From an uncultured Thermococci archaeon (GTDB taxonomy: Archaea; Methanobacteriota_B; Thermococci; Thermococcales; Thermococcaceae): a DNA stretch of 34,403 nucleotides. Positions within the stretch are counted from its first letter, which is position 1. Each line of letters opens with the position of its first letter. The stretch spans positions 1 to 34,403 of the forward strand of contig CAZTOS010000016.1 in assembly GCA_964615185.1 (NCBI GenBank), given 5' to 3'. This document shows positions 2,365 through 25,296 of the stretch, piece by piece. A program made the translations under genes and the position numbers. The notes under the pieces are model-generated. The model was not told where the DNA came from. It was given only the letters and a program-made list of their open reading frames with translations, and made no database searches.

Positions 2365-2389
2365 GAGAGACGTGTTTATCACCTGCAAT
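2365..2389 (+). repeat. Repeat family A copy 1 (GAGAGACGTGTTTATCACCTGCAAT), putative Orc1/Cdc6 binding box
   Basis: Matches consensus TGTTTATCAYYTGYA; lies just past the cdc6 stop codon. Confidence 0.8.
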
Positions 2390-2414
2390 AACTTCAAAAA
2401 GTAGAAATAAAACA

Positions 2415-3674
2415 TTAGACAATTCCCCGCACACGGATTTCCCGGAAAACGGGGTTTGTAACATGGTCAAGAGTCCTGCCGAATTTCTCACTGAGAACTT
2501 TTTCCACCAAATTCAAAATTTTTACAGGCTCTTCTTCAATGTGAAATATTAATGTCTTGCCTCTTCCTCTCCCTAGGCCCTTCTCTTTGGAGGTTACCAA
2601 GCCCTGGGTCTCAAGCTTTGGAGTTATGTAATGCATCACATGGCGCATTGTACGGGGTGTCCACTCCAACTCATCACAAGCAATTTTGTAGAGATGGTAA
2701 ACAGTCCCGGTCATCGGCGTTATGCCAGAATCTTCAAGAAATGCTATTGCCCATAGGACAATGAGCTGGTCCAAGTCAAAGCCCTGAATGGTCTCCTTAA
2801 GCATGTCCTTATCAACAATTTCAACAGCTTTCCAAATTATATTCTCAGTGACTTTGTTAGTAGCCAAAAGACCAGCCTCTTTCAGAACTCTAAAGCCCCA
2901 TCTTAAATCTTTTCCACTCCTCTTTATTAAAGCAGCCAACAGTTTGGGAACAGCCTCATCAACGGTTCCAGGCTTGAAGGCTTTTTCAACTCTATCCTTC
3001 AAGATTTCGGCAAGTTCTATTGCATTGTATTCCCTGAAGTAAACAATCTCCGGAATGAACTTGGATCGGGTAAAATACTCCAGCTTCTGAAGAATATCTG
3101 TTCTATTGGAAATAACAGCAAAAGCCACATTTTCCTTTCCAGTAAGTTCGTCAAGCCTTGACATTCTGTAAATCAGAGCATTCATGGGCTCTTCTCTGTC
3201 ACGGGCTGAGCGTTTTATCTTGTCAATCTCATCAAAGATGAAAACATAAGTGCCAATGCTCTTTTTAAGATGTTTTGCAAGAGCATCAACAGCCTCACCA
3301 ACACCGAGCCCTCTGCTGGGAAAGTCAACCCCCAGTTCATGAAGCAGAGAGACTATGATCTGATAGTAGGTCTTGTCCTTACAGTTTACATATATCATTT
3401 CTGAATCAATCTCCTGTTCCTTGGCGAATGAGTTGTAGGATCTGGCTATAAGTTGGATGGCATGTGTTTTACCGGTTCCAGGTGGACCATGAATTAACAG
3501 ATTTCCAGGATGTATTCCTCTCAGGAATCTTCCAAAGTGTCTGGTTATTCGGGCTATCTCCTCTTCTCTAAATAAAAGATGATCTGGAATATAACTCTCA
3601 CTGAGAACTCCAGGATTTATAAGAATTGTCTCCCTCCTTATCTCCTCTTCAAGGATTTTTCGTGGGTCCATCAT
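2415..3674 (-). CDS. cdc6: Orc1/Cdc6 family replication initiator (mobile-element type)
   Basis: YIPDHLLFREEE N-terminal motif, Walker A GPPGTGKT, Walker B FIFDEID, GKDLR sensor-2, C-terminal wHTH with GRGRGKT wing; start moved to ATG 3674 behind a GGTGAT RBS. Confidence 0.92.
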   Translation of the reverse strand: MMDPRKILEEEIRRETILINPGVLSESYIPDHLLFREEEIARITRHFGRFLRGIHPGNLLIHGPPGTGKTHAIQLIARSYNSFAKEQEIDSEMIYVNCKDKTYYQIIVSLLHELGVDFPSRGLGVGEAVDALAKHLKKSIGTYVFIFDEIDKIKRSARDREEPMNALIYRMSRLDELTGKENVAFAVISNRTDILQKLEYFTRSKFIPEIVYFREYNAIELAEILKDRVEKAFKPGTVDEAVPKLLAALIKRSGKDLRWGFRVLKEAGLLATNKVTENIIWKAVEIVDKDMLKETIQGFDLDQLIVLWAIAFLEDSGITPMTGTVYHLYKIACDELEWTPRTMRHVMHYITPKLETQGLVTSKEKGLGRGRGKTLIFHIEEEPVKILNLVEKVLSEKFGRTLDHVTNPVFREIRVRGIV

Positions 3675-3714
3675 AAGGATCACCAAGACTAATATGATAA
3701 GCAACTTTTGGGGT

Positions 3715-3800
3715 TGTTTATCATTTGTAACTCTAAGGATATAAACCTTGTGATGGTCAGCAACCAAGCTTAGAGAAAGGAGAGGTGTTTATCATTTGTA
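3715..3800 (+). promoter_or_regulatory. Two family A boxes (TGTTTATCATTTGTA at 3715-3729 and 3786-3800) in the cdc6 upstream region
   Basis: Identical 15-mers about 40 and 110 bp upstream of the cdc6 start. Confidence 0.75.
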
Positions 3801-4026
3801 TTTACTCCCAAATATGGTTAAAATGCTTCTCCCTATTGCTTCTTTTGTATGAGCGTAGAGTCACAGGCTGTGCCAAACTCAATGAGCTTAAAATTTGCTC
3901 TCGTGGTGTTCCCGAGTTTTAATACTTTGAATTGCATTATCCTAGAAAGAGCATTGTAATGCTAATATTTTACAACAGAAAAAGACAACAAATGAGAAAC
4001 TTTAAATGAGTGAAATTAAACAAAAG

Positions 4027-4722
4027 TTAAACAATATTGAATGTTAGAATGTCTTTGAATAATTCCCTAAGTTTTTCTCCTAATTGCGGATTCTCGATAA
4101 GGAACCTCTCTATTTCATCTGCAAGGGCTCTTGGATGAATAGCATAGACAAAGGGTTTATCTCGATATTCAATAAGTACTAAAACTCTACCGCTCTCATC
4201 AATACTCTCCATGATTTCTTTTACAGCCTTATTGACTTCTTCACTTTCTTTTAAGATATCAACTCCGTAATGCACATGATTTAAGATTTTTCCAAAGACG
4301 TTTTCATCAAAGAACTCCTTATCCATGCTTTCAATGTTGTCAATATACTCAGTAAGGAGCTCCTTAACAAAAGGTTCCGACACTGCTGCAATGAAACCAT
4401 CTCCCATGTGGAATTGTACATTTATCACACCAATTTCCCCATTCACTAGCTGCGCTCAATGGTCCAGTTGAAAACATCAGCAGTAATGTCTATTGCAAGA
4501 AATAGTTTTCTTTAGCTGGTCTATCTATAAAACAGGAGGGCACTCCAATTGAAATATCTTCCCGATTTCTAAGGCAGCATTGAAGGAATTCCTTAGCTAG
4601 CTTTTCAAATTCCTTTATTTTCTCTTGTTTTCTTCTTCAGGTACATTGAAGTTTATCTCAGAGATCTTATCATCCATATCTATCTCAAAACCATTCTTTC
4701 TAAAGGTCTTTCTGATAAACAT
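4027..4722 (-). pseudogene. Probable frameshifted gene; C-terminal 139 aa ORF (4027-4446) remains open
   Basis: GGAGG RBS and ATG at 4722 give MFIRKTFRKNGFEID..., which stops after 35 codons; protein-like sequence continues in shifted frames (EKIKEFEKLAKEFLQ...) up to the 4446 ORF. Confidence 0.5.
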
Positions 4723-4781
4723 AATATCTTACCCTCCTTGAGATTGCGTAAATTTTTGAACGTGATCCTTGCGTTCTATTT

Positions 4782-7367
4782 TTATATTATTCCATGGTCT
4801 TTGAGTTCGTTAATTATAGGTTGAAGATATTCAACAAGTGAAGGATCCTTAGATAGTTTTCTCTTAATTGTTTTAGAAACATCTACTTTTGAAAAATCTC
4901 CGAGTCCATATTTTTTAAACTTTTTATCAAGCAATTCTGTTATCTTTTCTTGAGATTTTGTCTCCATAATACTTTTGATAGCATCATTGAGCTTTTTTAT
5001 CTTGGAAGGATCATGAATGAAGATCCCAAAATAGCAATCAGAAACACATTTTAAGTAAAATTCCTTATCAATCAGATCTTCGATTTCTTGATTCTTATTT
5101 CCCAAGAATACTAGTTCATAATCTTTTTTCTTCTCTTTATGACAGACTTCTTTTTCTGTCTCTTTCTTCTCTTCATCTTTTATATCTTCAAACTCTTGCC
5201 TTTTGTCCCCATCTAAAACAAAATAATGTTTAAGTTTGTTATCATGCCTACCGTATAAGCACTCCAATTGCTCGATTCTTTTTACTATTTCATTTTTATC
5301 AATACCATCCCCACCAGAAAGAGGATAGATATACCACTTCTCTGGTAAAACTCCAGCTTTTTGTAAACCTTCAAAAATGAATTTATCCGAAATGCCTTCT
5401 ACGAATAAAATTCCACCAAATTTTTCAATAAAATCCTCAAAAATTAATTTATCAAATCCCAATGCATATCTTATCGGAGCAATAATATCCTTCTTTTCAT
5501 TTGTCCATGGCTTTTGAATGGTTGTCCTATTTTCTTCATCTAGTTGTACCAACAAAACCCTATCTAATTCTCGTTCGTCAAAAAGAGATATCAGATGCGT
5601 GTTATATAATATCTGAACGTTCTTTGAAACCTCATTGATTGTTTTGAGAAAGTCCTTTTGTCCTCGTTCATGTAAAAAGACAGCAGGATCATCTAATAGC
5701 AAAACTATATCTTTATTTTCACCCCTTATTCTTAAATATTCTAAAGTTATGAGATATGCAAGATACCATTTAAATCCTCTAGATCTTGCTTCTGGAGGAG
5801 TCCTTTTTCCTGGAATAGGCCTGTGGTCATCATCTAACTCAACGATTTCGAAAGAAATACCTTTCTCCCAAACATTACAGGTAATATATACTTTTTGTTG
5901 TTCCCACAAATCTTCGAGAGTTCTTGAAAACTCATCTAGCCTATTATGAAGAAAGGTATTCTGGTTAGGTACATCCATTTCATCAAATTTCTCTAAGTCA
6001 ATTTTTAGGAGTTTAAATAGCCTTGCGTTAATTACGTAGTCTCCTTCCTCCTCATTAAGAGTTTGACTCCATTTTCCAGCTTTTCGTACAACTCCCTTTA
6101 GCTCCATTTCTTCTGATAGATAAACAAAATCTGGCCTTAATTTAGCTAGAGCCATGATCACAATTTTTTCGAACTGGTTTGTTGTCACAAGTTCTTTAAT
6201 TTTATTGATTTTTGATGTCATATTGTTATATAGTTTTATAAATAAACTACGAGGATTGAGAGGAGGCTTAATAGGATAAGAACGTCCACTAATATTTAAG
6301 GAAGAAATATTTGTACTCGAAGAGTTTTGTAGTTTCTGATGAAGGTCTTGTTTTACCGCCTCAAACCTTTCTATAATCCCTTTGTTTTTGGTAGATTTGT
6401 CAATCTCTTCTAATTTATTAACGACTGAGGTTATAGTGTTTAAGAAATTAGGGTTGTTCTTAACAGCTTCAATTCCTTTCGGGATTACCTCGGGGGGTAT
6501 ATTATTAGATTCCAAGATGTTTCTTACTTCAGCCTCAAACATGTTAATAAAAAGATCGGAAAGAGGAATACTTAATATAGATATCCTTATGATTTCTATG
6601 AGTATGTCCATGAGCTCTTCTAGTCTACTGTTTAACTCTGCATCATAAAAATCAACGCCAAAACGTCCATCCTCATATTTTTCAAGTTTAAGGAACCTAA
6701 TGGTTCCAAAATCTATTAGAGATGATGGTAGTTTTTTGAATTCAAAACCTACATTATCAAGTGATTTTTTAGCCCCATCTGTAAGAGAAGGTGCTACTAA
6801 AATTCCGCGGATATTCCCGTACTTTTCTCTTAGAGAGTCAACATAGGTCTCAAGTCGACGAACAGAAGTTAAATCAGCCCTTTTATTTACAATTTCAACA
6901 ACAACCAAAGCACCTTTTTTATCCTTACAAATCACGTCTACTATACCACTCGGTGTTTTCGTTTCCAGAGAGATAGGGACAAGCCCTAGTTCTTTTACAA
7001 TACTATAAAAGTCTGTCAATAGATTTGTTTTAAGAGTAAGAGGATACTCTCCAAGTATTTTTTGGACTTCAGATTCTATCACAAAATTTAACAGTTCTCT
7101 AAACTTTTCTCTGTTAATTATTTCAAAATATGCCTCCACAATAGGTTGATCAATTTTTTCAATACTTGCCCGTAGATCTACAGGGATATCCTCATCTTTC
7201 ATACGGGAATCTGTTCCGAACCAATTTAATGCTCTTAGTATGTTAGACTTTCCACTTTCATTTGGTCCAACTAATACAGTTACATCTCCAATATTGTTGA
7301 GATGCACTTCTCGTATTGATCTGAAATTCCTAATAATCACTTTAACAAGATAAAGAACTCTAGGCAT
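4782..7367 (-). CDS. OLD-family ATP-dependent nuclease (ABC ATPase + TOPRIM) with inserted NucS-like PD-(D/E)xK domain
   Basis: IRNFRSI, Walker A GPNESGKS, SRGFKW signature, Walker B LLLDDP, H-loop NTH, TOPRIM VEGISD...GG...LDGD; insert GIVDVICKDKKGALVVVEI...RGILVAPSLTDGAKK resembles the NucS C-terminal domain. Confidence 0.85.
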   Translation of the reverse strand: MPRVLYLVKVIIRNFRSIREVHLNNIGDVTVLVGPNESGKSNILRALNWFGTDSRMKDEDIPVDLRASIEKIDQPIVEAYFEIINREKFRELLNFVIESEVQKILGEYPLTLKTNLLTDFYSIVKELGLVPISLETKTPSGIVDVICKDKKGALVVVEIVNKRADLTSVRRLETYVDSLREKYGNIRGILVAPSLTDGAKKSLDNVGFEFKKLPSSLIDFGTIRFLKLEKYEDGRFGVDFYDAELNSRLEELMDILIEIIRISILSIPLSDLFINMFEAEVRNILESNNIPPEVIPKGIEAVKNNPNFLNTITSVVNKLEEIDKSTKNKGIIERFEAVKQDLHQKLQNSSSTNISSLNISGRSYPIKPPLNPRSLFIKLYNNMTSKINKIKELVTTNQFEKIVIMALAKLRPDFVYLSEEMELKGVVRKAGKWSQTLNEEEGDYVINARLFKLLKIDLEKFDEMDVPNQNTFLHNRLDEFSRTLEDLWEQQKVYITCNVWEKGISFEIVELDDDHRPIPGKRTPPEARSRGFKWYLAYLITLEYLRIRGENKDIVLLLDDPAVFLHERGQKDFLKTINEVSKNVQILYNTHLISLFDERELDRVLLVQLDEENRTTIQKPWTNEKKDIIAPIRYALGFDKLIFEDFIEKFGGILFVEGISDKFIFEGLQKAGVLPEKWYIYPLSGGDGIDKNEIVKRIEQLECLYGRHDNKLKHYFVLDGDKRQEFEDIKDEEKKETEKEVCHKEKKKDYELVFLGNKNQEIEDLIDKEFYLKCVSDCYFGIFIHDPSKIKKLNDAIKSIMETKSQEKITELLDKKFKKYGLGDFSKVDVSKTIKRKLSKDPSLVEYLQPIINELKDHGII

Positions 7368-7792
7368 AATTATCACATATTATTTTACCAAACTTTGAAT
7401 ATTAAAAAGTTTCTTTTTCCAAAGGTATACCACTATACTTCTCAACTGATGCTCCTCTCTGATATATGATTCTTTATCTTAATTATGATGAACCTTTACT
7501 TTCTCTTTAGAGTTGCATTGAATAACCGGATTATTCGCTACTATTTGAATACATCTAAGAAAGGCCTAAGAGTAGGAAATGATGTGTACCGAGTAAAACT
7601 TGAGGTACTCGGAAGATCTTGGCCTCAACTATTTTTGGAAGTTCCTTTTACCTTTTAATGCTGGTATTAACTCCATAGAACTTGTAAAATATGAAAAAGA
7701 GAACAGAATGAGTTAAACTAACGAAAAAATCAAAAAGTTAAACAATCTCATAACCCACAATTTCATTAAAGAAAAACATCTGAGCAAATTTC

Positions 7793-8280
7793 GAATTGCA
7801 TTTAATACAATTCATGTTCTCAGCATATGAAGACTCGTGTTTATCATTTGTATCTACTAACGCCAGTAGTGTCAATAGGAGCGATATATGGTTCCATTTC
7901 CCCTAAATAGCAAGACTCATCTCATATCGTACAACCATTGAATAAATACACACAGACACATGTTTATCACTTGTAACTATTATCGGAAATCCCCATAACT
8001 GAAACCCTAAATCAAAAACAAAAAGTTTATATAGCTCTACTGACTATAAACAAACAGTGTATATACTATTCTATTTATCTAGGTTATTTAGAAGGATAGA
8101 GAGAAAATAGAGACGTGTTTATCACTTGTATTACTTATAATAATAGTATAAATGAGGTGAATTCAAGAATTTTTGATAGAAATGCAGTGTTCTGGAGTTA
8201 CATGACTTTTTCCGAAAGTCTGTTACAAATGATAAACATCTCTCTGTCTCTACTATGTTGAATTGCTTTTAATACAATTC
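7793..8280. other. Putative replication origin: four family A boxes plus AT-rich spacer, bracketed by two palindromes
   Basis: Boxes at 7838-7852, 7961-7975, 8116-8130 (+) and 8224-8238 (-); palindromes at 7793-7813 and 8260-8280; no ORF in the track for 7377-8293. Confidence 0.65.
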
Positions 8281-8293
8281 GAGTAGTCATAAG

Positions 8294-9046
8294 TTATTGC
8301 TTTCCAACAAAGGAGAACTCAAGGTTTCTGATAAACTTCTCTAAATCTTTACTTCTAAGCCCTCTTTCTGCGAGCATGTTTCTGAGCATCAGTAGTTTTT
8401 CATAAAATAACCCGACAAGCCATTCAAACTTGTCTGGCTCAATGAGGGCTTTTTGGGCGTTGAGTTCATCAAGAATTGTACTGAAATTTATGCCGTGTTC
8501 AAGTAAGCGAAGTAAATCATCGATGTCTTTGATCCTACTGAGGGATGTCACACCTTTGAACAAGAATATGTCCTCAAGAGAGACCAGCTGGATTCTGAGA
8601 ACTTTTAAATTTCTAAACTCGTTTGGGATTATTGAGCGAGTTTTCATACCCTCTGAAAGTGCTATTCCCCTCAGAACTCTTTTTACAAAGACATCAAGAG
8701 TAAAATCGCTCATCCTTGGGTCGAGCTTTTTATAGACTGAAAAAGCTCCAAGTTTCACTTTGTATTCATGTTCGACTTCTTTTATATAAATGACCATTAC
8801 TCCTGGACCTACCCTAAGTTTGGGTGAGGGATTTGTGAGGACTTCATCAAGAGCTTTTAGAATATGAACATTTTCAACGATAATATCAATATCAACTGTT
8901 GCCTCTTTTATGCCCCTTAGTGCGAGATTGCCGCCACCTATGAGGTAAAGGGTTATCCTTTTAGGGATAACTCCTTGGGCAGCCAGCAGTTCAGCTTTCT
9001 CATCCAGCAGAGTAAACTCTTCAATCAATCTTTCTCTTGTTATCAT
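8294..9046 (-). CDS. Pol-beta superfamily nucleotidyltransferase (AbiEii-like), putative toxin
   Basis: YLIGGGNL...ATVDIDI motif, EDIFLFK...KDIDDL C-terminal motif; start at ATG 9046 with GGAGGT RBS, overlapping the upstream gene. Confidence 0.8.
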   Translation of the reverse strand: MITRERLIEEFTLLDEKAELLAAQGVIPKRITLYLIGGGNLALRGIKEATVDIDIIVENVHILKALDEVLTNPSPKLRVGPGVMVIYIKEVEHEYKVKLGAFSVYKKLDPRMSDFTLDVFVKRVLRGIALSEGMKTRSIIPNEFRNLKVLRIQLVSLEDIFLFKGVTSLSRIKDIDDLLRLLEHGINFSTILDELNAQKALIEPDKFEWLVGLFYEKLLMLRNMLAERGLRSKDLEKFIRNLEFSFVGKQ

Positions 9047-9971
9047 TTTCACGACCTCCAAAGTACTGACGATAAAGTTCTTTAACTTCGTCCCGGGAAG
9101 GGAATGGGTAACCTTTCTCTTCTCCATTGAGATATTGGAGAATCTCATCAACGATTTTGAGAACATCAAACTTAAGGGCAAGGTGTCTGAGCTTAGCAGC
9201 ACTGAATCTCTTAGCCTTCAGGAGGGTTATAATGTAAAGGAGATCTCTTGTATCAGGCTCTGTAACAGCCAGCGCATGAACAACGGCCTCTTCCATTGTT
9301 ATTCTCTTAGATGGCCAGTAATAGTGATAAACTCCTGCTGAAACTATGCTGAGACCAAAGTCCCCAAACCGGGACAAGCCTGTAAGCTGAAATGAGCCCC
9401 ATGCCGTACCTTTGAAGCTTCTCGTGGCGAGAATGAATTCGTTAACACCGCTCCATACAACTACTGCATCCTCACTAAAGCTCTTGGCTTTTATTGAATT
9501 CTGTAGGTGGAAATATTCATCGGCAAATTCCTTAATGAGTGAAAAACGCTCTGTGATGAAGTAACCCTCTTCGTTTTTCCCGACGATAAGTCTTTCCATT
9601 AACTCGGCCAAAACATGATGCACAGTGTAGCGGTTTACGTTAGCTTTCAGAGCAATCTCCCATGCTGGTCTTGGCTTTTCAACACCCATCCCACCAATGA
9701 CTTTGAGCTTTCTACCGGCAAGAAGAGAGGTAAAGTCTATGTGGGGGAATTTGGCTAAGAGTTCATGGTAAACTTCGAGCGGCTTAGTATTGGAAGGGAG
9801 AAGTATACTCTTTCTGCCTTCTCTTTTTCTCTCTATAAGACCTTTCCTTTCGAGAGATTTGGCGATTATAGAAAGCCTTGCCCTCGAAAGACCTAGTTGA
9901 GTAGAGAGTTCTTTAAGGGATGTTGGTTTATGAAGGGCTGAGAGAATCTTGAGCTCTGCTCGAGTAAGCAT
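9021..9971 (-). CDS. Tandem wHTH regulator, putative antitoxin partner of the nucleotidyltransferase
   Basis: N-terminal ArsR/MarR-like wHTH (SLKELSTQLGLSRARLS...LERKGLI), a second HTH, overlap with the downstream NTase gene. Confidence 0.78.
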   Translation of the reverse strand: MLTRAELKILSALHKPTSLKELSTQLGLSRARLSIIAKSLERKGLIERKREGRKSILLPSNTKPLEVYHELLAKFPHIDFTSLLAGRKLKVIGGMGVEKPRPAWEIALKANVNRYTVHHVLAELMERLIVGKNEEGYFITERFSLIKEFADEYFHLQNSIKAKSFSEDAVVVWSGVNEFILATRSFKGTAWGSFQLTGLSRFGDFGLSIVSAGVYHYYWPSKRITMEEAVVHALAVTEPDTRDLLYIITLLKAKRFSAAKLRHLALKFDVLKIVDEILQYLNGEEKGYPFPSRDEVKELYRQYFGGRENDNKRKID

Positions 9972-9980
9972 GATATCACC

Positions 9981-10028
9981 GTGCCAAAATTGTTAAACAT
10001 TTTATAAAAACTTTTTGATTTTTGGCAC
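9981..10028. promoter_or_regulatory. Inverted-repeat operator GTGCCAAAA...TTTTGGCAC around a TATA-like TTTATAAA
   Basis: Perfect 9-bp arms at 9981-9989 and 10020-10028, immediately upstream of the wHTH gene. Confidence 0.6.
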
Positions 10029-10042
10029 TATCTTTTTAGTAA

Positions 10043-11047
10043 CTACCAACTGAATTTATCAACTAATCTTCCCTGAGAATCATAAAGGTAGGCGGTATCA
10101 TGGTCATTGTTCCAGATTGCTCTCTTAGATCCCCAATAAAGATCATGAGAAGTATCTGTACCGCTTCCTGTGTGAAGAACGATCTCCTGTCCGGGCTGGA
10201 GAACTAACGAAGGGAAGTGATACGTGTGTCCTGCTTCATCCATTATTATCCATCCTTTCAAATTCACTGGATTTGAACCTTGATTCTTCAACACAACGTA
10301 CTCATCATTTAACTTGTCGGCATCTCTAACTTGGGTTCCACCTGCGTCGTAGTGGACCTTTAGAATAACAACTTTCCCAGTGGTAGCAGTATGTGTAAGC
10401 GTTGGTTCAGTAGAGGTATCTGCGTACTTTCCTATTTCACATCCCCAAAGTCCAAGTTTTTTGGATTCTGCGCTCTTCTGATATGCTATGTATTCCTGCT
10501 CTTTTAGGAAATCCCCCTCAGTGTAAACTCTGGCATAGCCTCTTTTGATGAGTAGAGCTGTGAAGTCTGTCCCGTTCTCAAGGTAGATGTAAGCTAACAA
10601 ACGACCGTAATATCCCCTCTTTCCAGCTTTAGGATCGAATTCAATGTAGATTACTTTATTCAAAAGAACGTCCCTTGTAAAAAATTTAGCTTTGATTCCC
10701 CAACTTGCAAGACATTTTAAATCTGTGATGTGATCGTACTCATTGGGTTTGTTTCTGGAAGCACTGGTTTCTGGAGTATCCACTCCCAGAAAGCGAATTC
10801 TCTCAATGGTTCCATTTGGAAAAGACACATCAATTGTATCTCCATCAATGACTTTTATTACATAGACCCTAATGGCGTTCGCGGGTATTGTTGGGGATGG
10901 AGATTGGTAGGATGGGTGGGATGAGACTGAATAATAGCTTGTTGCAGAAGTTACAGTTGGTGTGGGAGTATTTTCGCCCAGACAACCCGCTGTAAGTAGT
11001 ATAGTCAGAGTCATGGAAACCAGAATTAATGTGGCTTTGCGAATCAT
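10043..11047 (-). CDS. Lipoprotein thermonuclease (SNase) with C-terminal lamin-tail domain
   Basis: AGC lipobox, Ser/Thr/Pro linker, VIDGDT...IRFLGVDTPE...YGRLLAY SNase motifs, NDEYVVLKN...NLKGW...IWNNDHD LTD motifs. Confidence 0.9.
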   Translation of the reverse strand: MIRKATLILVSMTLTILLTAGCLGENTPTPTVTSATSYYSVSSHPSYQSPSPTIPANAIRVYVIKVIDGDTIDVSFPNGTIERIRFLGVDTPETSASRNKPNEYDHITDLKCLASWGIKAKFFTRDVLLNKVIYIEFDPKAGKRGYYGRLLAYIYLENGTDFTALLIKRGYARVYTEGDFLKEQEYIAYQKSAESKKLGLWGCEIGKYADTSTEPTLTHTATTGKVVILKVHYDAGGTQVRDADKLNDEYVVLKNQGSNPVNLKGWIIMDEAGHTYHFPSLVLQPGQEIVLHTGSGTDTSHDLYWGSKRAIWNNDHDTAYLYDSQGRLVDKFSW

Positions 11048-11188
11048 ATAGTTGCACCCATTTTTGCTAATCTTTAATTGAAATTTGGAGGTTTGATTAG
11101 ATAAAAATTTCTAAATGATCTCTCTTTTGATGTGGGCTAAAGTTGGAACGTTACTGTTATATATGATGAGTATCGTAATCATTATTCG

Positions 11189-12140: not shown

Positions 12141-12250
12141 GAAAGCCTCGCCCTTTAGGGCGGGGATGCAGTAATTCTGATACCAGCCCTTAAACAAGAA
12201 AGCGAAAAACATTTAAGCAGTAATGCATACCATACACTAAGGGATTCATA

Positions 12251-16339: not shown

Positions 16340-16405
16340 GTCTTAATCCCCCCTTTATACTTTCCACTACAGCAATGCTTAGAGCAGGCATTCTTATTTC
16401 AGTTA

Positions 16406-16444
16406 CCTCCCCCTAATCATAATCAATGAAAGATTTAGGGGAGG
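16406..16444. other. Intergenic hairpin CCTCCCCCTAATC...GATTTAGGGGAGG
   Basis: 13-bp arms with one mismatch, between pcp and the Lrp gene. Confidence 0.45.
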
Positions 16445-16618
16445 ACAAAGTCTGTGCCCACTATACTTCACATTCTTTCTTTTCTTCCTTTAGTATTTTC
16501 TCGACGTCAAAACCTCCTCATATTTCTTCAGCTTTCTCTCAAAGAATTCCATGAAGAGCTATCAGAAAAGGGATTAAAAGGACAACGAGGACAAGCACTC
16601 GCATCTTCTTGACCTCAA

Positions 16619-17278
16619 CTAAATTGGCTCTTTGATATCTTCTTTTCCCTCTCTCATAAATCTAAGGGTTGTCTTTATAGCTATTTCAATTGCCTTGATT
16701 TCCAAATCCAGGCACATACTTGGTGTGTTTTTGCCAAGTAGGAAGAACTTGTTAACAACTTGATCCGGGGTGTATGGAACGTGAATGAAGCCTGCTTTTT
16801 TGGGATAATCATGAAGCTTTGAATAGTGGAGCGTTTTGAACATAACGTAATTACACAAATAGGTTCCAGCACTGTAGGAAATCATTGCTGGAACACCATT
16901 ATCTTTAAGCTCCTTTACTATTGCTCTAACTGGTAGGGTGGCAAAGTATGCTATTGGGGCATCTTTTTCTATAGGCTCATCAATTGGTTGGTATCCATCG
17001 TTGTCTGGAATTCTCGCATCCAAAAGGTTTAAGGCAACTCGTTCGACGGCTATGTTGCTGTAAGTTGGTGCCAGCCCTAAATTTATCACAATGTCTGGTT
17101 TTAGCTCATTAAGGATTTGCTCTAATTTTGGTCCAGCATGCTTAACAGAAACCGGCAAAACTTTCCCAGTTATCTGTGCTCCATCTATAGTCCTTCCGTT
17201 AAGGGTTTTAGCTATCATTTCTGTTGGATTTTTATCATCTCCACCAAATGGCTCAAAACCCGTGACTAAGACTTTCAT
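16619..17278 (-). CDS. pcp: Pyrrolidone-carboxylate peptidase (pyroglutamyl peptidase I)
   Basis: [34 protein letters not shown]; start overlaps the upstream stop (ATGA). Confidence 0.96.
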
Positions 17279-18450
17279 CTCTCTCCCTCCAAGTATTCGT
17301 AAGCTAATAGGGCATAGATTGCAGAGCCTTTCCAAAGAACACTCTCATCAACGTTAAACTTTGGATGATGGTGAGGATAGACTATGCCCCTCTTTTCATT
17401 TCTAATTCCCAAAAGGACAAATAATCCTGGGATCTTTTGAGCGTAGAAGGCAAAGTCTTCAGCTCCCAAAGTAGGTCTTGGCTCAACTATCTCTCCGAGA
17501 GGTTTCAATATCTTTCTTGCAAAATCTGCTAATCCTTTATCATTTATCGTTGGGGGGATGTACTCCATTGTGAGTTTAAGCTCTCCCTCACATCTCATTG
17601 ATTTTGCATAACCTTCGGTTATCTGCCTCATTCTTTCGATTATAAAATCTCTAACCTCTTCATTAAATGCTCTTATAGTACCCCAAAGTTCTGCAGTTTC
17701 TGGAATGACATTAAAAGTTGTTCCTGCTACAATTTTTGTAACGCTTATGACTGCAGGATCCAATGGATTTATTTCCCTCGAAATGATTTTTTGGTAAGCA
17801 TTTGCGATATCAATTGCTACAACTATTGGATCGATAGACATATGTGGTACTGCACCATGGCCTCCTTTTCCTCTTATTGTAGCTTTAAACGCATCTGCAG
17901 ATGCCAGTAAAGGCCCTTCCTTAATTCCGATTGTTCCGGAAGGCAATTCAGCCCATACGTGAATACCAAAAATAGCGTCTACATCATCTAAGTGTCCTTC
18001 CTCAACAATTTTTTTAGCTCCCAATCCTCCTTCTTCCCCTGGTTGGAAGATTAACTTTACTGTACCATTCACTTTATCCTTTATTTCAGCCAATATCTTT
18101 GCTGCTCCTAAGAGCATTGCTGTATGAGCATCATGACCGCAAGCATGCATCTTCCCTGGAACTTTAGACTTGTATGGAACATCATTCTCCTCCTGAACAG
18201 GCAAAGCGTCCATATCAGCTCTCAAAGCTACAGTTTTTTCCTCCTCTTTACCTCTCAAAATTCCAATAATACCAGTTTTTGCAGTCTTTATAACTTCATA
18301 ACCGAGCTCCTCTAGCTCTTTGGAAACGATGGATGAAGTTCTTTCCTCCTCGTACTTAAGTTCTGGGTACATGTGAAAGTCTCTTCTCCTCTCTATAATA
18401 TATGGTTCTAACTCCTTAGCCTTTTTAATAACAAACTCTTCTACTTTCAT
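17275..18450 (-). CDS. M20D amidohydrolase / thermostable carboxypeptidase (CpsA-like)
   Basis: [44 protein letters not shown]. Confidence 0.95.
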
Positions 18451-18491
18451 AACTTATCACCTCATATCGAATAAAAAAGGGAATAAAGAGG

Positions 18492-19934
18492 TCAGGTAAA
18501 TGCAACCTTAAATTTTTCAAAGTTTTCATCAGGTTTTGTCGCATATGCTACTATTATTGTTACAATGAAGTTTACAAGCAGGCCCCAAAGTCCAAAATGA
18601 ATTCCCAGGGGGTTATGCTTAAGTCCAAATTTTATGTATGTCACTGTTATTAATCCTGCAATCATTCCTGCTCCAGCTGCATATTTGTTCATCCTCTTCC
18701 AGAAGAGTCCAAGGACTGCTCCTGGGAACATTTGAGTTATACCTGAATAAGCTAGTAGCAATAGAGCAACTAATCTTCCTGGGGCATAGAGAGCCAAGAG
18801 CATTGCAACAAGTCCGAAGAGTATAACTGACACTCTACTAACCAGTACCAGTTCTTTATCTGATGCCTCTGGCTTGATTATAGTATATAAATTCTTGGAT
18901 AGCAATCCTGCAAGTGTCAATATAATTGCACTTGCTGTTGAAGCCGCTGCAGCAAATCCTCCTGCCCCAACTATTCCCAAGACCCAGGAGGGATATGATA
19001 CTTCTATTGCTTTCAGTACAGCTTCATCCGGAGTTGCTAATTTAATACCCATTGCAGCAATAGTCAAGCCGGCTAATATTACAGGTATCATGAAAATTGA
19101 GTATATGGGCAATAATGTATAGTTCTTCTTCAGCGTTTTTAAATCTCTTGCACTGTATATTGAGGGGTACATCTGAGGATACATGAAAAACCCAAGTCCA
19201 CATAAAATTAGAGTTGAAACATACCATGCAATTCCAAGAGGTGGGTGGAGTACTAAGTGTTCAGGTTTAGCTTGTGCCAGTGCCTTGAACATTTCACTAA
19301 CTCCTCCAAACTGTTTAAATGGAACTGCAAAGAGGATGGCCCATGCAACTATGAACATTAGAGTTGCCTGCAGGAGATTTGTCCATGAAATGCCTCTAAG
19401 ACCACTGGTGTAAACGTAGATCATCATTATTACCATTCCAATGACAATCCCTGCTTTTATTGAAATTGTGTTAAGTGACCCAACATTGACAATGTAACCA
19501 AGCCCCTGTAGCTGTAGCTGGAGGTATGGAACATTGAAAACAATACCGATAAGTGCTACAAGTGCCGCCAATGCTCTACTGTTATATCTTACATGGAAGT
19601 AGTCAGCTTGAGTTACACATTTAAAGTATTTTCCAACTTTCCAAACGTATTTTGCATAGAAATAACCAAAGGCATATGCTAAGGCTCCATAACCTATTGC
19701 ATACATTATTGGCATTCCATAGGAATATGCCCAACCTCCAGTTCCCAAGAATGCATAGGCGCTGTAAATTTCTCCCGCCATTAGAACATAGAGAAATATT
19801 AAACCCAAGCTCCTTCCTGAGACCAGGTATCCTTCTAGGTTGAATTTTCTCTTTATTCCTGCTAGAACTCCAACAGCTAAGCTTAACAGTACCCATCCGA
19901 TAATTATCGCAACAGGGAGTATTGCACTACTCAA
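18492..19934 (-). CDS. Sodium:solute symporter family protein
   Basis: About 13 TMs; YLVSGRSLG, SAYAFLG, DYFHVRY, YTSGLRG, AAASTA; likely TTG start 19934 (ATG 19970 alternative). Confidence 0.92.
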   Translation of the reverse strand: MSSAILPVAIIIGWVLLSLAVGVLAGIKRKFNLEGYLVSGRSLGLIFLYVLMAGEIYSAYAFLGTGGWAYSYGMPIMYAIGYGALAYAFGYFYAKYVWKVGKYFKCVTQADYFHVRYNSRALAALVALIGIVFNVPYLQLQLQGLGYIVNVGSLNTISIKAGIVIGMVIMMIYVYTSGLRGISWTNLLQATLMFIVAWAILFAVPFKQFGGVSEMFKALAQAKPEHLVLHPPLGIAWYVSTLILCGLGFFMYPQMYPSIYSARDLKTLKKNYTLLPIYSIFMIPVILAGLTIAAMGIKLATPDEAVLKAIEVSYPSWVLGIVGAGGFAAAASTASAIILTLAGLLSKNLYTIIKPEASDKELVLVSRVSVILFGLVAMLLALYAPGRLVALLLLAYSGITQMFPGAVLGLFWKRMNKYAAGAGMIAGLITVTYIKFGLKHNPLGIHFGLWGLLVNFIVTIIVAYATKPDENFEKFKVAFT

Positions 19935-20139
19935 GGAGGCCACCCCCAAGTTCAAACTTGTATGCTCCATAGAGGCATGCTGAGGTTAGTATGAGCCATA
20001 GTGTGTTCCAGAACATCAATGGTGGCATGCCAAGAATCAGGGGCTCTGGCTTGTTGAAGAACGGTGAAATCACTACATATGCTATCCATGGTAGAACTCC
20101 CAAAAGCAAGGCGTATTTTTGAGCCTGGCTTTTTTCCAT
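19927..20139 (-). CDS. Small two-TM SSS-associated protein (DUF3311-like)
   Basis: FNKPEPLILGMPPLMFW motif; directly upstream of and overlapping the symporter; GAGGTG RBS. Confidence 0.8.
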   Translation of the reverse strand: MEKSQAQKYALLLGVLPWIAYVVISPFFNKPEPLILGMPPLMFWNTLWLILTSACLYGAYKFELGGGLLE

Positions 20140-20959: not shown

Positions 20960-21328
20960 CTATTTCCATTTCTCAAATAGCTCTCTCTTGGTTTTTGCAT
21001 AAATTTCATCAAAGGCTTCTCTCCAGTCTTTGGTGAGCTTGAGAAGTCTGCGTGGCCTGTTTCTGGGATTCTCGACAAGTCTTGTTTCAATTATGCCAAG
21101 TTCTTCCATTTCAAACATGAGGTTTCTCCAGCTTCTGAGAGCAGTCCCGGGATTCACACCAAGGAACTCAGCAAGTGCCAGGTTGCAGAGCTCTTCAGCT
21201 TCACACTTGCAGTAATCTCTGTGTGTCCAGCAAGGCCCTCCTCTTTCCCGAAATGTTTTCTTTATCATGGGGGCATTTTCAAGGGCTACAATCATCTTCA
21301 TTACATTCCTGAGTGTGGCTCCTCCCAT
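20960..21328 (-). CDS. Small wHTH-type DNA-binding protein with a Cys/His cluster
   Basis: CWTHRDYCKC; LAEFLGVNP...MEELGIIETR...PRRLLKLT helix-wing pattern; ATG 21328 with GAGGT RBS. Confidence 0.7.
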   Translation of the reverse strand: MGGATLRNVMKMIVALENAPMIKKTFRERGGPCWTHRDYCKCEAEELCNLALAEFLGVNPGTALRSWRNLMFEMEELGIIETRLVENPRNRPRRLLKLTKDWREAFDEIYAKTKRELFEKWK

Positions 21329-21354
21329 GGTAATAACCTCAATGGTGAATAGTT

Positions 21355-21377
21355 CGAATTGCTTTAAAAGCAATTCG
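21355..21377. promoter_or_regulatory. Palindrome CGAATTGCTTTAAAAGCAATTCG, putative operator of the wHTH gene
   Basis: 11-bp perfect arms about 27 bp upstream of the start codon, centred on a TATA-like sequence. Confidence 0.7.
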
Positions 21378-22433: not shown

Positions 22434-24368
22434 TTATGGCTTTTTTCTCAAATTTCCAATTAATATCACTCCAATCACTGAAATAATCCATGAAACTGCA
22501 TATATGAATGAATCAGGTTTTGTTGCCCTAATTATAACAAAGTCACAGGTTTCTTTTATCTCGTTTAAAACACATACCTGCACACTATACTCTCCCTCCC
22601 TCCTGTCAGTTTTTATTTTAATTTTAAGTTCTTGCGTTTCCCCGGGCTCAAGAGCAAAGCTTGATTTTGATACTTCATAGAACCAGTCTTTAGGAACTTC
22701 AGCAACCAGAGATAGGTTTTTCAGTTTTGTGTCCCCTGCATTTCTAACTTTCACCGGAATTGTTATTTCATCTTGAGTCTCATAATAGTAGGAATCCAGA
22801 ATAATCTTAATTTTTGGATCCTCGATAACGTGAAGCCTGAGAGCTTTCTCTGTGATGTTATCTGTAGTTAGGGTTCTGAAGGTTAGGTTATAAGTTCCTG
22901 GATGTAGTTCTTCAGCTCTTAGCTTTAGATATAGAACAGCGACTTCTTTTGGTGCCAGTTTAAGAGTAGAAATGGCTTTCTCTGAGGTTGGAGTTCTTAG
23001 CACCCACCACCTTATGTTCTTGGGTCCAGATAAATCAAATGTTATCTCTCTTTTCTCGTAACCCGAATTTTTAAGAATGAAGCTTATAGTAGTGTATTCT
23101 CCATTCAGCTCTACGTCTAATGTTTCAAAAGATAATTCGACCTTCGAAGGTTCCTTTTCTAAGATGACATCAAGCTCTCTATTCTCAACGGGGTTCAGAC
23201 TAACATTGATAGTTTTGTTCTTGTATCCTTTGGCAGCTAATGTCATTGTATAGGTTCCGGGATTTAGCTCAAACTCAACTCTCCCTTCTGAATCTCCAAT
23301 CTTTGTTAGATTCCCAAATTTCACGATTGGATATTTGATTGGGACTAAGTCCTCATTGAAGACTCGTATTTTTACACTTATAGGTTGGGTTCTACACTCA
23401 CCGAGAAAGCTGATATTGAATTGATAGCTATTTCCGTTGATAAGCACCTTGATTTTTCCTTTATTTGGACCAGTATATGGTTTTTCAGCAACTAAGTACA
23501 CAACTTTTTTCTCGTTTGGTTCCAGAAACAGAACTCTGGTTCTTTGATTTTCACTGTCATGAAAATCGACGTTCCAGTCTTGAGGCTTCTCAAGTATCCT
23601 AAATACCAGAAAATCCCCATCTCCGTGATTTTCCACAATTATTGGGAACTCAGCCCTTTCATTGCAAGAGACCTGAAGTTGTGAATAGGGAATTATGATT
23701 GTGAAATTTTCCCTATGTTCTTTGTCGGGAAGTTCTATTTTGATCTCCCCTACAAAGCTGTTTATTCTAAACCTAACTCTGTCACTTCTTGCGTTAGCGG
23801 GAATATCAATTATCAGATATAGCTTGATACTTTTTTCTGATCCAAGGAGTAGCTGTTTGATTGAGTAAGTCTTTTCAGAAGTTTCAAAGTGGGCTTTCCA
23901 ATTATTGGGTACATCTATCAGCTCAAATGTCAGTGTGAGGTTGTCCAGTGTGGGATTCTCTATTTCAATTGGTAGCTTTAGTATAGTTCCTGGAGTTGCT
24001 TTTACAACAAGTGGCTGATATCTAACCCTGAATTTTTCGGCATGTTGAACTCTCTGAACTTTTGCATCTGGACCATAGATAAGAATGTGTAGCCTTTCAT
24101 TTACCCACTTGCCGATAATAAGAGTGAAATTTCCAAATTCAATTTGCTTCCCGAATATTGCCTTTCCAAACCATATTATCTGGCTCTCATTTGTGATCAT
24201 TAAGTATGGTTCTCCAGAAAGGCTGAGCTGAAGCTGTATCATAAAATTGTTCACTTTCAAAGCATCATAAGTGGTTATGTGTTCGTTAAAGATGGGTTCT
24301 CCTTTTAGGGCTTGTGAAAGGGGGAGAACTGATAAAGATATTATGAGCAAAGTAAGAATTTTTCTCAC
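22434..24368 (-). CDS. Surface protein with repeated Ig-like (NEW3/COG1470-like) domains, a PEGA/carboxypeptidase-regulatory-like domain and C-terminal TM
   Basis: Signal peptide; repeated xENxG...P..W...L.P.E patterns; PGTYTMTLAAKGY; C-terminal hydrophobic helix followed by RKKP. Confidence 0.8.
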   Translation of the reverse strand: MRKILTLLIISLSVLPLSQALKGEPIFNEHITTYDALKVNNFMIQLQLSLSGEPYLMITNESQIIWFGKAIFGKQIEFGNFTLIIGKWVNERLHILIYGPDAKVQRVQHAEKFRVRYQPLVVKATPGTILKLPIEIENPTLDNLTLTFELIDVPNNWKAHFETSEKTYSIKQLLLGSEKSIKLYLIIDIPANARSDRVRFRINSFVGEIKIELPDKEHRENFTIIIPYSQLQVSCNERAEFPIIVENHGDGDFLVFRILEKPQDWNVDFHDSENQRTRVLFLEPNEKKVVYLVAEKPYTGPNKGKIKVLINGNSYQFNISFLGECRTQPISVKIRVFNEDLVPIKYPIVKFGNLTKIGDSEGRVEFELNPGTYTMTLAAKGYKNKTINVSLNPVENRELDVILEKEPSKVELSFETLDVELNGEYTTISFILKNSGYEKREITFDLSGPKNIRWWVLRTPTSEKAISTLKLAPKEVAVLYLKLRAEELHPGTYNLTFRTLTTDNITEKALRLHVIEDPKIKIILDSYYYETQDEITIPVKVRNAGDTKLKNLSLVAEVPKDWFYEVSKSSFALEPGETQELKIKIKTDRREGEYSVQVCVLNEIKETCDFVIIRATKPDSFIYAVSWIISVIGVILIGNLRKKP

Positions 24369-24369
24369 T

Positions 24370-25296
24370 TTAAGAACCTCCTTTGTACTTGTAAATCTTT
24401 ACTTCAGCCTCAGGATTCTCTTTGAGAATTTCATTCAAGTCTACATCCTTGATGTATCTCGGCCCTTTATTTGTTAGAACAACATCAAAGGGACTTAACT
24501 GAAGCTTTTGATTTATGATGTCCTTTAAAGGGAGTATTTTTGTGTAATAAGGCCCTCTCGTTTTCATCCAATAAACTTTGGGAACCCTGTTCTCTGTAAC
24601 CTCAAAGTACCCCTTTGGTGTTGCAAGATAAAATCTCTCATAGCCAGCTCCAATGATTTCCCCTTCCAAATCATAGCAAAAGCCTTCACAGTATGTGAGC
24701 TTTACAAAAACTCGATAAGTCTTACCCTCACGACAACCCTTTTCGAGATAAAGATTCCTTGCACCAACAAAAGTTGGCATGGCTGATCTGAAAACAGAAC
24801 GCCAGCCAATGTAGTAAATGCTAACTGTTGAAACAGCTAAAAATGAGAATATAAGGAAAACCACAAGCTCTTGTCTTGAGTTTGTCTTCACCGTAAGCCT
24901 CTGTGGAATGAAGTAAACTGGTCGTGGATTAGGCCAGAAGAGCATTACTCCAGTTTTAGTCATTCCATCTGCGACAAGATGGCTTAATGTTCCCACAGAA
25001 AAAGCCACTGCATACGTTAATTTCCCACCCGGATAGGTAATTGCAAGTGATAAACACGTCTCTCCAAGCCAGAACCAGAGGCTGTGTGTAAGTGTTCTGT
25101 GTCCATAACGTTTGTTGATCCATTTTGAAAGGGGTAAGAATAACATCCCTATACTGCTGGTTGGATTGTCGATGTCGGGGATTAAAGCCCCAAAGGCGAC
25201 TATTGCAAGGATGCCTCTTGTTATTGGGAGGCTGAAGATAGAAGCTGTTATCCCGTAGAAAAATATGGAGAAAACAATGTGGGTAAGTCCCATCAT
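24370..25296 (-). CDS. Membrane-bound metal-dependent hydrolase (YdjM/DUF457-like) with C-terminal extension
   Basis: THxxF, GALIPDID, GHRTLTHS, SHLVADGMT...GV.LFWP motifs. Confidence 0.85.
   Translation of the reverse strand: MMGLTHIVFSIFFYGITASIFSLPITRGILAIVAFGALIPDIDNPTSSIGMLFLPLSKWINKRYGHRTLTHSLWFWLGETCLSLAITYPGGKLTYAVAFSVGTLSHLVADGMTKTGVMLFWPNPRPVYFIPQRLTVKTNSRQELVVFLIFSFLAVSTVSIYYIGWRSVFRSAMPTFVGARNLYLEKGCREGKTYRVFVKLTYCEGFCYDLEGEIIGAGYERFYLATPKGYFEVTENRVPKVYWMKTRGPYYTKILPLKDIINQKLQLSPFDVVLTNKGPRYIKDVDLNEILKENPEAEVKIYKYKGGS
25040..25064 (-). repeat. Repeat family A copy inside the hydrolase coding sequence
   Basis: Minus strand GAGAGACGTGTTTATCACTTGCAAT, 24/25 identical to the copy at 2365-2389. 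Confidence 0.8.

Follow-up and report, generated by a model that had tools for sequence, protein, structure and literature searches.

Archaeal chromosomal origins built on origin recognition boxes (ORBs) or mini-ORBs, as described for Pyrococcus and Sulfolobus (PMC4640148, PMC1904270), have boxes of ~22 nt that adjoin the initiator gene, with copies in inverted orientation on either side of a spacer within a long non-coding stretch, and, according to the available text of these reports, an initiator with AAA+, lid and winged-helix domains. We analyzed a 34,403-nt stretch of DNA from an uncultured Thermococci archaeon (hereafter the window), which is the complete contig C16 of its genome assembly (2,259,596 bp in 138 contigs, 95.6% complete) and which encodes a divergent Orc1/Cdc6 protein, here called W-type Cdc6, among eight copies of a repeated box. 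The window system is like the ORB origins in each of the features named above. Unlike in those origins, however, the sequence of the window box is unrelated, the boxes lie on a plasmid-type element and one of them lies inside a gene. We propose that the boxes are very probably the DNA target of the W-type Cdc6, whether the protein serves as an initiator or as a regulator, and that the box set and the protein would form a private origin/initiator pair with autorepression of cdc6, a reading to which we assign a probability of roughly 60%.

Comparable pairings have been described in haloarchaea, in which Orc paralogues each depend on their own adjacent origin (Haloarcula hispanica, PMC3936714; survey, PMC3528665), and these modules, like the window system, occur on plasmids as well as chromosomes and are thought to move as units, as far as the accessible parts of those accounts go. 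The two cases differ in archaeal order and in the basis for specificity, which would follow from co-variation here and which comes from genetics in the available account of H. hispanica. Iteron-controlled bacterial plasmids encode a Rep protein that binds the iterons of the origin, its own promoter and extra copy-control iterons. The window resembles these plasmids in combining one initiator gene with sites at a candidate origin, at the promoter of that gene and in outlying places, which fits the same logic of autorepression and titration. In contrast, the initiator families are unrelated, the window boxes are not regularly spaced direct repeats, and handcuffing would be speculation for the window.

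A regulatory use of an Orc1/Cdc6 paralogue is described for Sulfolobales, in which Orc1-2 binds a promoter motif that is not an ORB (PMC6061795, PMC9738581). The available text of these articles presents Orc1-2 as a chromosomally encoded, global regulator of the DNA-damage response, whereas the W-type protein is element-borne and has local clusters of boxes; the comparison is relevant to the W2 clade described below and to the possibility that the W-type protein is itself a regulator. For Thermococcales, a single Cdc6 and a single origin have been described. Within this order, Cdc6 was described as unique except in Thermococcus sp. CL1, and the accessible part of that report states that no ORB was detected close to CL1's second Cdc6-related gene (Cossu et al., 2015, PMC4640148). 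The plasmid family of pTBMP1, already named in the literature (PMC5823998, PMC3543421 and a 2026 bioRxiv preprint), has the same collinear blocks as the window and the same convergent pair of boxes (95% identity), with the replication module swapped. No origin or boxes are described for this family in the available text of these three sources, and we found no description of the boxes in the accessible portions of the literature on pTBMP1 or on Cdc6 and plasmid origin recognition boxes in Thermococcales. The kind of system is therefore known, and the box family, the co-variation series and the contexts reported here appear to be new. The lineage of the second Thermococcales Cdc6, at least as presented in the available 2015 text, now has a candidate DNA target.

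Eight boxes and an Orc1/Cdc6 gene on one contig

A preliminary description of this DNA, made from the letters alone, had listed eight copies of a 15-bp core, TGTTTATCAYYTGYA, around the cdc6 gene. An exact search recovered all eight where they had been placed, at 2373, 3715, 3786, 7838, 7961 and 8116 on the plus strand and at 8224 and 25042 on the minus strand, and none of 100 dinucleotide-preserving shuffles of the window contained any match. When up to two mismatches were allowed, the window contained 10 matches against 0.92 expected. Across the whole genome, all eight exact matches were on C16 and a reversed-pattern control gave none, so the motif is not evenly scattered over the chromosome. 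A relaxed 12-mer, TTATCAYNTGYA, matched 17 times in the genome, including eight matches on C16, which makes up 1.5% of the genome. The nine remaining matches, one of which is a palindrome near the end of contig C69, lacked the AGAGAC half described below and were taken as chance. A 26-column weight matrix built from the eight sites scored these same sites, on which it had been trained, at 25-39 bits, and the best other site in the genome reached 18.6 bits.

Alignment of the sites revealed a two-part box of ~22 nt, AGAGACG followed by TGTTTATCAYYTGYA, which consists of a GAGAC-like half, a 4-nt spacer and then TTATCAYYTGYA. The GAGAC-like upstream half was present at seven of the eight sites and missing only at 3715, consistent with the earlier claim that most cores are preceded by AGAGACG-like sequence. 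Start-to-start spacings between boxes were 71, 123 and 155 nt, to which one inverted copy is added. The placement of the boxes relative to the genes had also been described correctly, and we add that the distant box at 25042 lies inside a ydjM-family coding sequence. The first 20 nt of this box 8 (AGAGACGTGTTTATCACTTG, window 25044-25063) equal box 6 exactly. Its counterpart in pTBMP1, a plasmid without a W-type protein, differs at 4 of 22 positions in a block of 88.8% DNA identity, which means that in this single comparison the site shows no more conservation than the sequence around it. This divergence fits either a functional site that is kept only alongside the protein or chance.

The window box is not a canonical ORB: it has no TCCA-N-TGGA dyad, no G-string and no G run. 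The canonical mini-ORB core, which we take to be TTCCANTGGAAA, matched 10 times in the genome, five times beside the chromosomal orc1 gene on contig C23 and not once on C16, which bears out the view that the motif lacks the TCCAxTGGA core and G-string of chromosomal ORBs. The boxes that flank the chromosomal orc1 are of the TTCCAGTGGAAA type.

The protein encoded among the boxes matched the Pfam models PF00004 (AAA, 46.6 bits), PF22703 (Cdc6_lid, 41.0 bits) and PF09079 (Cdc6_C, 45.9 bits) above their cut-offs, as well as TIGR02928 (242.8 bits; cut-off, 181.3), and scored far below the cut-offs of the chromosomal ORC1 equivalog models NF001625 (196.4 vs 501 bits) and NF001623 (171.1 vs 311 bits). 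Its best solved relatives, matched over the full length, are the DNA-bound Orc1 structures 2v1u (chain A, 2v1u_A, E 8e-45) and 2qby_A (E 8.5e-41). Thirteen residues (G63, G68, K69, T70, D148, E149, I150, D151, N190, R228, R258, G115 and G122) are invariant in an alignment of nine sequences that includes chromosomal Orc1, and by our own reading they would represent the Walker A and Walker B motifs, the sensors and the loop glycines of the initiator-specific-motif region. Elsewhere in the genome, Cdc6_C matched just the chromosomal orc1 on C23, whose product is 32% identical to the W-type Cdc6. The closest named homologues come from Thermococcus and Pyrococcus, and a tblastn search of plasmids identified relatives on pTBMP1 of T. 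barophilus MP (44%) and on a 38-kb plasmid of T. profundus (41.5%), both of which carry what we call P-type cdc6. A search of genome contigs with the single protein returned only distant Cdc6 proteins (26-32%) of DPANN archaea and Methanosarcinales, and a scan of viral contigs found no relative of the locus. In a maximum-likelihood tree, W-type and P-type proteins form one clade apart from chromosomal-type Orc1 (100/100). Taken together, these comparisons show that the W-type protein is a full Orc1/Cdc6 of a divergent subfamily that groups with plasmid-type proteins. Domain and family scans recognized no other initiator on C16, and none was recognized on the pTBMP1-like contigs of this genome.

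Several other identities of the boxes were considered and rejected. Boxes 1 and 8 are linked by a 28-nt inverted repeat (93% identity), which could in principle form the two ends of a 22.7-kb element; the ydjM domain around box 8 is intact, however, with the box at its middle, and the gene order is collinear with pTBMP1. The boxes are not the ends of an IS200/IS605 insertion sequence either, since the one in the window, at 12251-13980, has hairpin ends of its own (12140-12166 and 13986-14012). As for promoter elements in general, a repeat of the T. profundus plasmid, AAATCTTTTTAAACTAAAG, resembles a B recognition element (BRE)/TATA promoter, whereas the window box does not.

Table 1. Boxes, cdc6 and associated features of the window (positions in nucleotides of the window).
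Feature	Position	Strand	Description
Box 1	2366..2387	+	AGAGACGTGTTTATCACCTGCA; 28 nt beyond the cdc6 stop codon, between convergent gene ends
W-type Orc1/Cdc6 gene	2415..3674	-	419 aa from the ATG at 3674; ribosome-binding site GGTGATCC just upstream
Box 2	3715..3729	+	Core only; antisense to cdc6; 41 nt upstream of the ATG at 3674
TATA-like box	3738..3745	-	TTTATATC; putative cdc6 promoter, read from sequence alone
Box 3	3779..3800	+	GGAGAGGTGTTTATCATTTGTA; ~35 nt upstream of the TATA box, core 112 nt upstream of the ATG
ORF139	4027..4446	-	139 aa, no family match; in W module
SMC/ABC-type ATPase gene	4782..7376	-	864 aa; a NucS-like nuclease domain interrupts the protein after its Walker A region; in W module
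Gene-free region, candidate origin	7377..8293	.	917 nt, boxes 4-7
Box 4	7831..7852	+	AGACTCGTGTTTATCATTTGTA
Box 5	7954..7975	+	AGACACATGTTTATCACTTGTA
Box 6	8109..8130	+	AGAGACGTGTTTATCACTTGTA; left arm of the convergent pair, right-hand direct repeat at the border of the W module
Spacer of the convergent pair (boxes 6/7)	8131..8223	.	93 nt; candidate unwinding and helicase-loading zone
Box 7	8224..8245	-	AGAGAGATGTTTATCATTTGTA on the minus strand; right arm of the convergent pair
Box 8	25042..25063	-	AGAGACGTGTTTATCACTTGCA on the minus strand; within the ydjM-family coding sequence 24370-25296

Co-variation of box and winged helix

To place the window among its relatives, we surveyed 97 Thermococcaceae genomes plus metagenome loci. 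W- or P-type cdc6 genes were found in nine of the 97 genomes (E <= 1e-70). The two-part pattern GASNNNNTTATCAYWTGTA matched 13 times, in seven genomes, and its reversed-pattern control matched four times. Twelve of the 13 matches are in pTBMP1 or no more than ~8.5 kb away from a W-type cdc6, and the thirteenth, in genome G030, is ~170 bp from pTBMP1-homologous DNA. The box is thus found only beside the W lineage or pTBMP1-like DNA, and the comparison supports well the private initiator/box pair that the preliminary description had suggested. Homologues of the W-type protein at 53-60% identity (G005, G032, G010, T. aggregans G029 and the metagenome loci L104 and L105) all carry boxes of the form (G/A)TTATCAYWTGTA, with GAC or GAG before the box at the same 4-nt distance. 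The box-bearing loci L031-L034 have only cdc6 in common with the window, bar one symporter match of 26%.

Within the clade, W1, W2, W3 and W4 are separate, well-supported lineages without a fixed mutual branching order in the tree. In W1 and W2, the recognition helix MRHVMHYITPK and the wing GRGRGKT accompany the box TTATCAYWTGTA. Helix MRHITHFVVPK of W4 accompanies GATATCGAGTGTAA, helix MRHLTHYIGVK of W3 accompanies TTATCAAGTGAA, helix MKHVINYIGAK of the P-type proteins accompanies GTTCCACTTCYTAACACACCCCC, and chromosomal Orc1 accompanies TTCCAGTGGAAA; in the winged-helix alignment, these four groups each deviate from W1/W2 in this region. The W4 boxes of G015 read GAGAG-N-GGATATCGAGTGTAA, with three upstream of cdc6 and one 1 nt past its stop codon, and the W3 boxes of loci L106, L107 and L108 read GACACTATRTTATCAAGTGAA, with three direct copies and one inverted copy upstream. 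In the AAA+ part, W4 resembles the window protein more than W2 does (63% vs 54-60% identity); in the winged helix it resembles it less (53% vs 59-64%), and it is the W4 box that differs. We conclude that five protein clades carry five box types and that the box changes together with the winged-helix sequence: when the recognition helix shifts, the box shifts, as expected of the pairing put forward in the preliminary description. The two halves of the box fit the two DNA contacts of an Orc1 monomer, made by its initiator-specific motif and its winged helix, although we infer which half would meet which contact. These five natural protein/box pairs allow a direct test of the recognition code of the Orc1 winged helix.

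The setting of cdc6 differs among the clades. W3 and P-type cdc6 genes adjoin ParA genes. W2 is a monophyletic sister clade (100/100) that has the same recognition helix and box as the window protein, and in all six of its loci (L032, L031, L034, L012, L104 and L105) cdc6 is followed within a few nucleotides by the genes for EIIA and EI of the phosphotransferase system (PTS). W2 cdc6 is the first gene of this chromosomal cdc6-EIIA-EI operon, which lies in PTS/amino-sugar clusters (9600-14250 in L032, 9590-14320 in L031 and 7792-19560 in L034). The W2 boxes are located in divergent PTS promoter regions; in T. aggregans, the convergent pair is upstream of the gene that opens the PTS operon, and the G005 boxes are within an inverted duplication of ~115 nt that includes the TATA box. 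The W2 Cdc6 may be an Orc1/Cdc6 paralogue turned PTS regulator, or its locus may be an origin captured with the island. In the former case, the PTS-linked clade would lengthen the short list of Orc1/Cdc6 paralogues turned regulators. A literature search on PTS and HPr in Thermococcales found nothing related.

In G015 (contig C7, L033 9610-11261), a 1.65-kb cassette of cdc6 plus boxes with a perfect 25-nt inverted repeat at its ends stands alone between an ACT-domain gene and the gene for the PheRS alpha subunit. The cassette marks a synteny breakpoint, because its flanks lie 115 kb apart in a relative of the same genus, and the flank homology restarts exactly where the last box ends.

Candidate origin, promoter layout and module exchange

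The four boxes 4-7 lie in the gene-free region, in which the longest open reading frame (ORF) has 57 aa and which matched no Rfam family. Several boxes, some of them inverted, thus surround a spacer in a non-coding region adjoining the initiator gene, which is the layout of Orc1 origins; the tandem, regularly spaced direct repeats of iteron origins are absent. A convergent pair with a 93-95-nt spacer recurs across six loci; the spacer length is 93 nt for three of them (window, pTBMP1 and L031), 94 nt for L012 and L105, and 95 nt for L032, whose partner box is degenerate (2 mismatches). Other spacers measure 107 nt in T. aggregans (L034), ~63 nt in G015 (L033) and ~50 nt in W3. The sequence of the spacer is not conserved between loci, except that those of the window and pTBMP1 are nearly identical. 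The promoter side of the layout is likewise conserved, with a TATA-like box and then an antisense box just upstream of cdc6 in four loci: the window, L031, L104 and T. aggregans (L034, 1 mismatch). In the window, this antisense box 2 is 8 nt downstream of the putative TATA box and lies over the predicted transcription start. The window, L033 and P-type loci each have a box directly after the cdc6 stop codon. As a side observation, a second element-specific motif, a 21-nt palindrome GAATTGC-N7-RCAATTC with three of its five genome matches on this contig, occurs at 7793-7813, 8260-8280 and 21356-21376 of the window and at 9559-9579 and 15131-15151 of pTBMP1. The first two window copies bracket the box cluster, and the 137-aa ORF at 20960-21373, whose start is overlapped by the third, may encode the palindrome binder.

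We next compared the contig with the 54,159-bp pTBMP1 and the 38,045-bp T. profundus plasmid. Some eleven ORFs of the window encode proteins 83-99.6% identical to those of pTBMP1 (for the resolvase, the match spans only half the protein), with block identities of 83-98% for NEW3/YdjM/ATPase, 94-96% for AbiE, 99.6% for DUF3800 and 98% for the resolvase fragment. DNA alignment covers 11,127 collinear nt at 80-95% identity, and the GC content of the contig (37.8%) can be set beside that of the genome (40.6%) and of pTBMP1 (38.3%). Judged from these alignments, the contig is a mosaic relative of pTBMP1, and it is thus a piece of a pTBMP1-family plasmid or else an integrated copy of such a plasmid.

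The boxes coincide with the borders of the mosaic. pTBMP1 4611-4783 corresponds to window 2214-2385, where the homology ends inside box 1; pTBMP1 4755-4909 corresponds to window 8100-8254, which contains the convergent pair (95% identity); and pTBMP1 9546-9689 corresponds to window 8247-8389. In a three-way alignment, pTBMP1 tracks the left flank of the window up to the box and the right flank beyond it. A 5.7-kb W module, comprising cdc6, ORF139, the SMC/NucS-type ATPase gene and boxes 2-5, is therefore bounded by the direct box copies at 2366-2387 and 8109-8130, and pTBMP1 represents the single-box state (4764-4785). Beyond the inverted box, pTBMP1 instead carries a 4.6-kb P module with an AAA_14 ATPase gene, the P-type cdc6 and a FokI-like ORF, between two direct copies of the 8-nt sequence TCTCTACT (pTBMP1 4895-4902 and 9545-9552). 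The W and P modules are alternatives on opposite sides of the same box pair, with the W-type cdc6 (44% identical to its P-type counterpart) placed before the pair and the P-type cdc6 after it.

The P-type genes come with a box of their own. The ORB-like GTTCCACTTCYTAACACACCCCC, which has a C/G run, occurs as inverted pairs, 200-270 nt apart, a short way upstream of cdc6, at 7998-8418 in pTBMP1 (L036) and 24803-25208 in the T. profundus plasmid (L037), and the metagenome loci L111, L112, L113 and L117 have P-type ORBs on both sides of cdc6. The classical-looking ORBs of pTBMP1, an inverted pair just upstream of its P-type cdc6, read GGTTCCACTTCTTAACACACCCCC, and the T. profundus plasmid has the same arrangement. 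This P-type ORB pair is likely the true origin of pTBMP1, and the TGTTTATCA pair is an orphan there, because the P-type cdc6 has its own ORBs. No P-type ORB was found in the genome of the window, and no window box was found on the T. profundus plasmid at up to two mismatches in the 15-mer or one in the 12-mer.

On the reading that we favor, the convergent pair (8109-8245) would be the core of the origin: two oppositely oriented initiators would bracket the 93-nt spacer, whose DNA would be opened and then loaded with the MCM helicase, and boxes 4 and 5 would serve as auxiliary sites. Box 2, directly past the TATA box, and box 3, upstream of it, would let the protein shut off its own promoter. 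Autorepression is suggested by the position of box 2 between the TATA box and the predicted transcription start, in a layout shared with three other loci, and makes box 2 the candidate operator. Boxes 1 and 8 might titrate the initiator or pair plasmid copies, which is the least supported step. An origin role is favored because the contig has a plasmid backbone, the sister clades are linked to ParA and no other initiator was recognized, and because the box pair lies in a long gene-free region far from promoters and one box lies beyond a stop codon. If correct, this would provide a compact candidate origin for the pTBMP1 plasmid family, consisting of ~140 bp plus one gene, which could serve hyperthermophile shuttle vectors.

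Several observations weigh against this reading. All of its support is correlative and drawn from related sequences. Box 8 lies in coding sequence, where it may be explained in part by the peptide TCLSLAI, which pTBMP1 also encodes. The 40-nt windows of the gene-free region contain 57-82% AT; the values are 70-78% in the four windows starting at 8120-8180, which span most of the spacer, and windows starting within the spacer have 62-78% (70-78% in the first two-thirds) compared to 62% for the window as a whole, so the spacer and its surroundings are moderately AT-rich, without a sharp peak or a striking unwinding element. pTBMP1 has two exact boxes, the convergent pair, and no W-type cdc6, and boxes can therefore outlast the protein, as a relic or through another binder. 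The PTS-operon setting of W2, which has the helix and box of the window, looks regulatory. Finally, the contig is not closed and its status as a replicon is unproven: no terminal overlap of its ends was found, the left end is joined by a 55-mer overlap to the small contigs C126 and then C133, the right end is linked to none, and it also carries ordinary metabolic genes (a peptidase/symporter block) and the IS200/IS605 element. The separate replicon proposed in the preliminary description is thus plausible, given the collinearity with pTBMP1, the ParA-linked sister clades and the lack of another recognized initiator, and left unproven in that the contig is not closed.

The strongest alternative is a serious rival, although we consider it rather unlikely. 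The W-type Cdc6 could bind the boxes as a transcription factor, with the box clusters as operators controlling cdc6 itself and neighboring genes, and the plasmid could replicate by a module that lies off the contig or was not recognized. The boxes of all six W2 loci are in promoter regions, pTBMP1 presumably replicates with a different Cdc6 yet keeps the boxes, and global regulation by an Orc1/Cdc6 paralogue has a precedent in the available accounts of Orc1-2 (PMC6061795, PMC9738581). Against such a role, only one start codon is oriented toward the gene-free region, at 460-850 nt from the four boxes, and box 1 is located between two convergent gene ends; both are poor positions for operators. 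Furthermore, the sister clades W3 and P occur in classical modules of replication plus partition (ParA), and neither the contig nor the pTBMP1-like contigs of the genome had another recognized initiator.

The junctions described above raise a second alternative, that the boxes are primarily recombination sites, such as ends or attachment-like sites of a mobile cdc6 cassette, and that their link with the protein reflects co-mobility. Direct boxes do bound the 5.7-kb W module, with pTBMP1 showing the single-box state and a crossover inside the box; inverted repeats that contain boxes bracket cdc6 in G015 (25 nt, 100%) and G005 (~115 nt); and the inverted repeat that joins boxes 1 and 8 (28 nt, 93%) could be read similarly. 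The cassettes have no recombinase in common, however, several boxes are internal to the supposed element, and the fixed-spacer convergent pair and the TATA-proximal box are unlike element ends. For the junctions, ordinary homologous recombination among repeated binding sites is explanation enough, whereas co-mobility leaves the winged-helix co-variation unexplained, and we regard this alternative as improbable. Still less probable is that a different DNA-binding protein of the element uses the boxes as operators, such as the MarR/HVO_2833-like regulator (9021-9971) or some other helix-turn-helix protein. A pair of genes with a winged-helix regulator (8294-9971) does adjoin the gene-free region, and pTBMP1 has boxes without a W-type cdc6, but homologues of the MarR-like pair (52-60%) are found on the box-less T. 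profundus plasmid and none on the box-bearing pTBMP1, and the chromosomal box-bearing loci have only cdc6 in common with the window.

A private origin/initiator pair in the window could also be one instance of something broader, which we raise tentatively as a possibility: the W/P Cdc6 lineage might be a portable module of reader plus box, in which a few winged-helix changes rewrite the box and which is used in two ways. On plasmids, it would be a private origin with its initiator, whose boxes would also be joints for swapping replication modules, as between the window and pTBMP1. In W2, it would be a domesticated regulator, transcribed as cdc6-EIIA-EI and acting on the same boxes in PTS promoters, possibly controlled by the adjacent EIIA proteins.

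Other features of the contig and its occurrence in public runs

The regulator gene next to the gene-free region overlaps an ORF for a nucleotidyltransferase-like protein (8294-9971), and the two, with homologues on the T. profundus plasmid and none on pTBMP1, are another swapped module adjoining the candidate origin region. Within the W module, the SMC/ABC-type ATPase gene has a 68%-identical DNA match on the 58-kb large extrachromosomal element of Methanocaldococcus jannaschii and is probably defence or repair cargo.

Parts of the window were detected in 20 public runs from 15 studies, mostly hydrothermal-vent metagenomes, with no RNA run among those listed. Contigs from four of the runs cover positions 1-20000 in mosaic fashion, and no listed contig bridges 2387 to 8109. 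Two joints in run contigs, 3823 to 7954 and 3823 to 8109, are anchored on one side by no more than 22-23 letters, the length of a box; they look like repeat artefacts and are at most a hint. Contig depth in these runs is uninformative on copy number or an origin peak. Depth was very high over 13341-14007, which indicates that the IS200/IS605 element (12140-14012, with TnpA at 12251-12685 and TnpB at 12766-13980 between the hairpin-like ends) is multi-copy in vent communities. Contigs of runs X2 and X5, from two studies, join 10046 to 11149 through the same 40 other letters, which indicates that variants of the element exist without the gene for a nuclease with an SNase and lamin-tail domain (10047-11148).

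Immediately upstream of the ydjM gene that holds box 8, 25362-26219 encodes a 285-aa AAA_22/STAND-like ATPase that is 97.9% identical to its pTBMP1 counterpart and matches Hda/DnaA-like proteins weakly, with a score of 42.8 bits that falls short of the cut-off. Near the right end, 31305-34381 contains AbiEi/AbiEii toxin-antitoxin, serine resolvase and DUF3800 genes that are 94-99.6% identical to those of pTBMP1, and the serine resolvase is full-length in the window (235 aa) and present only as fragments in pTBMP1.

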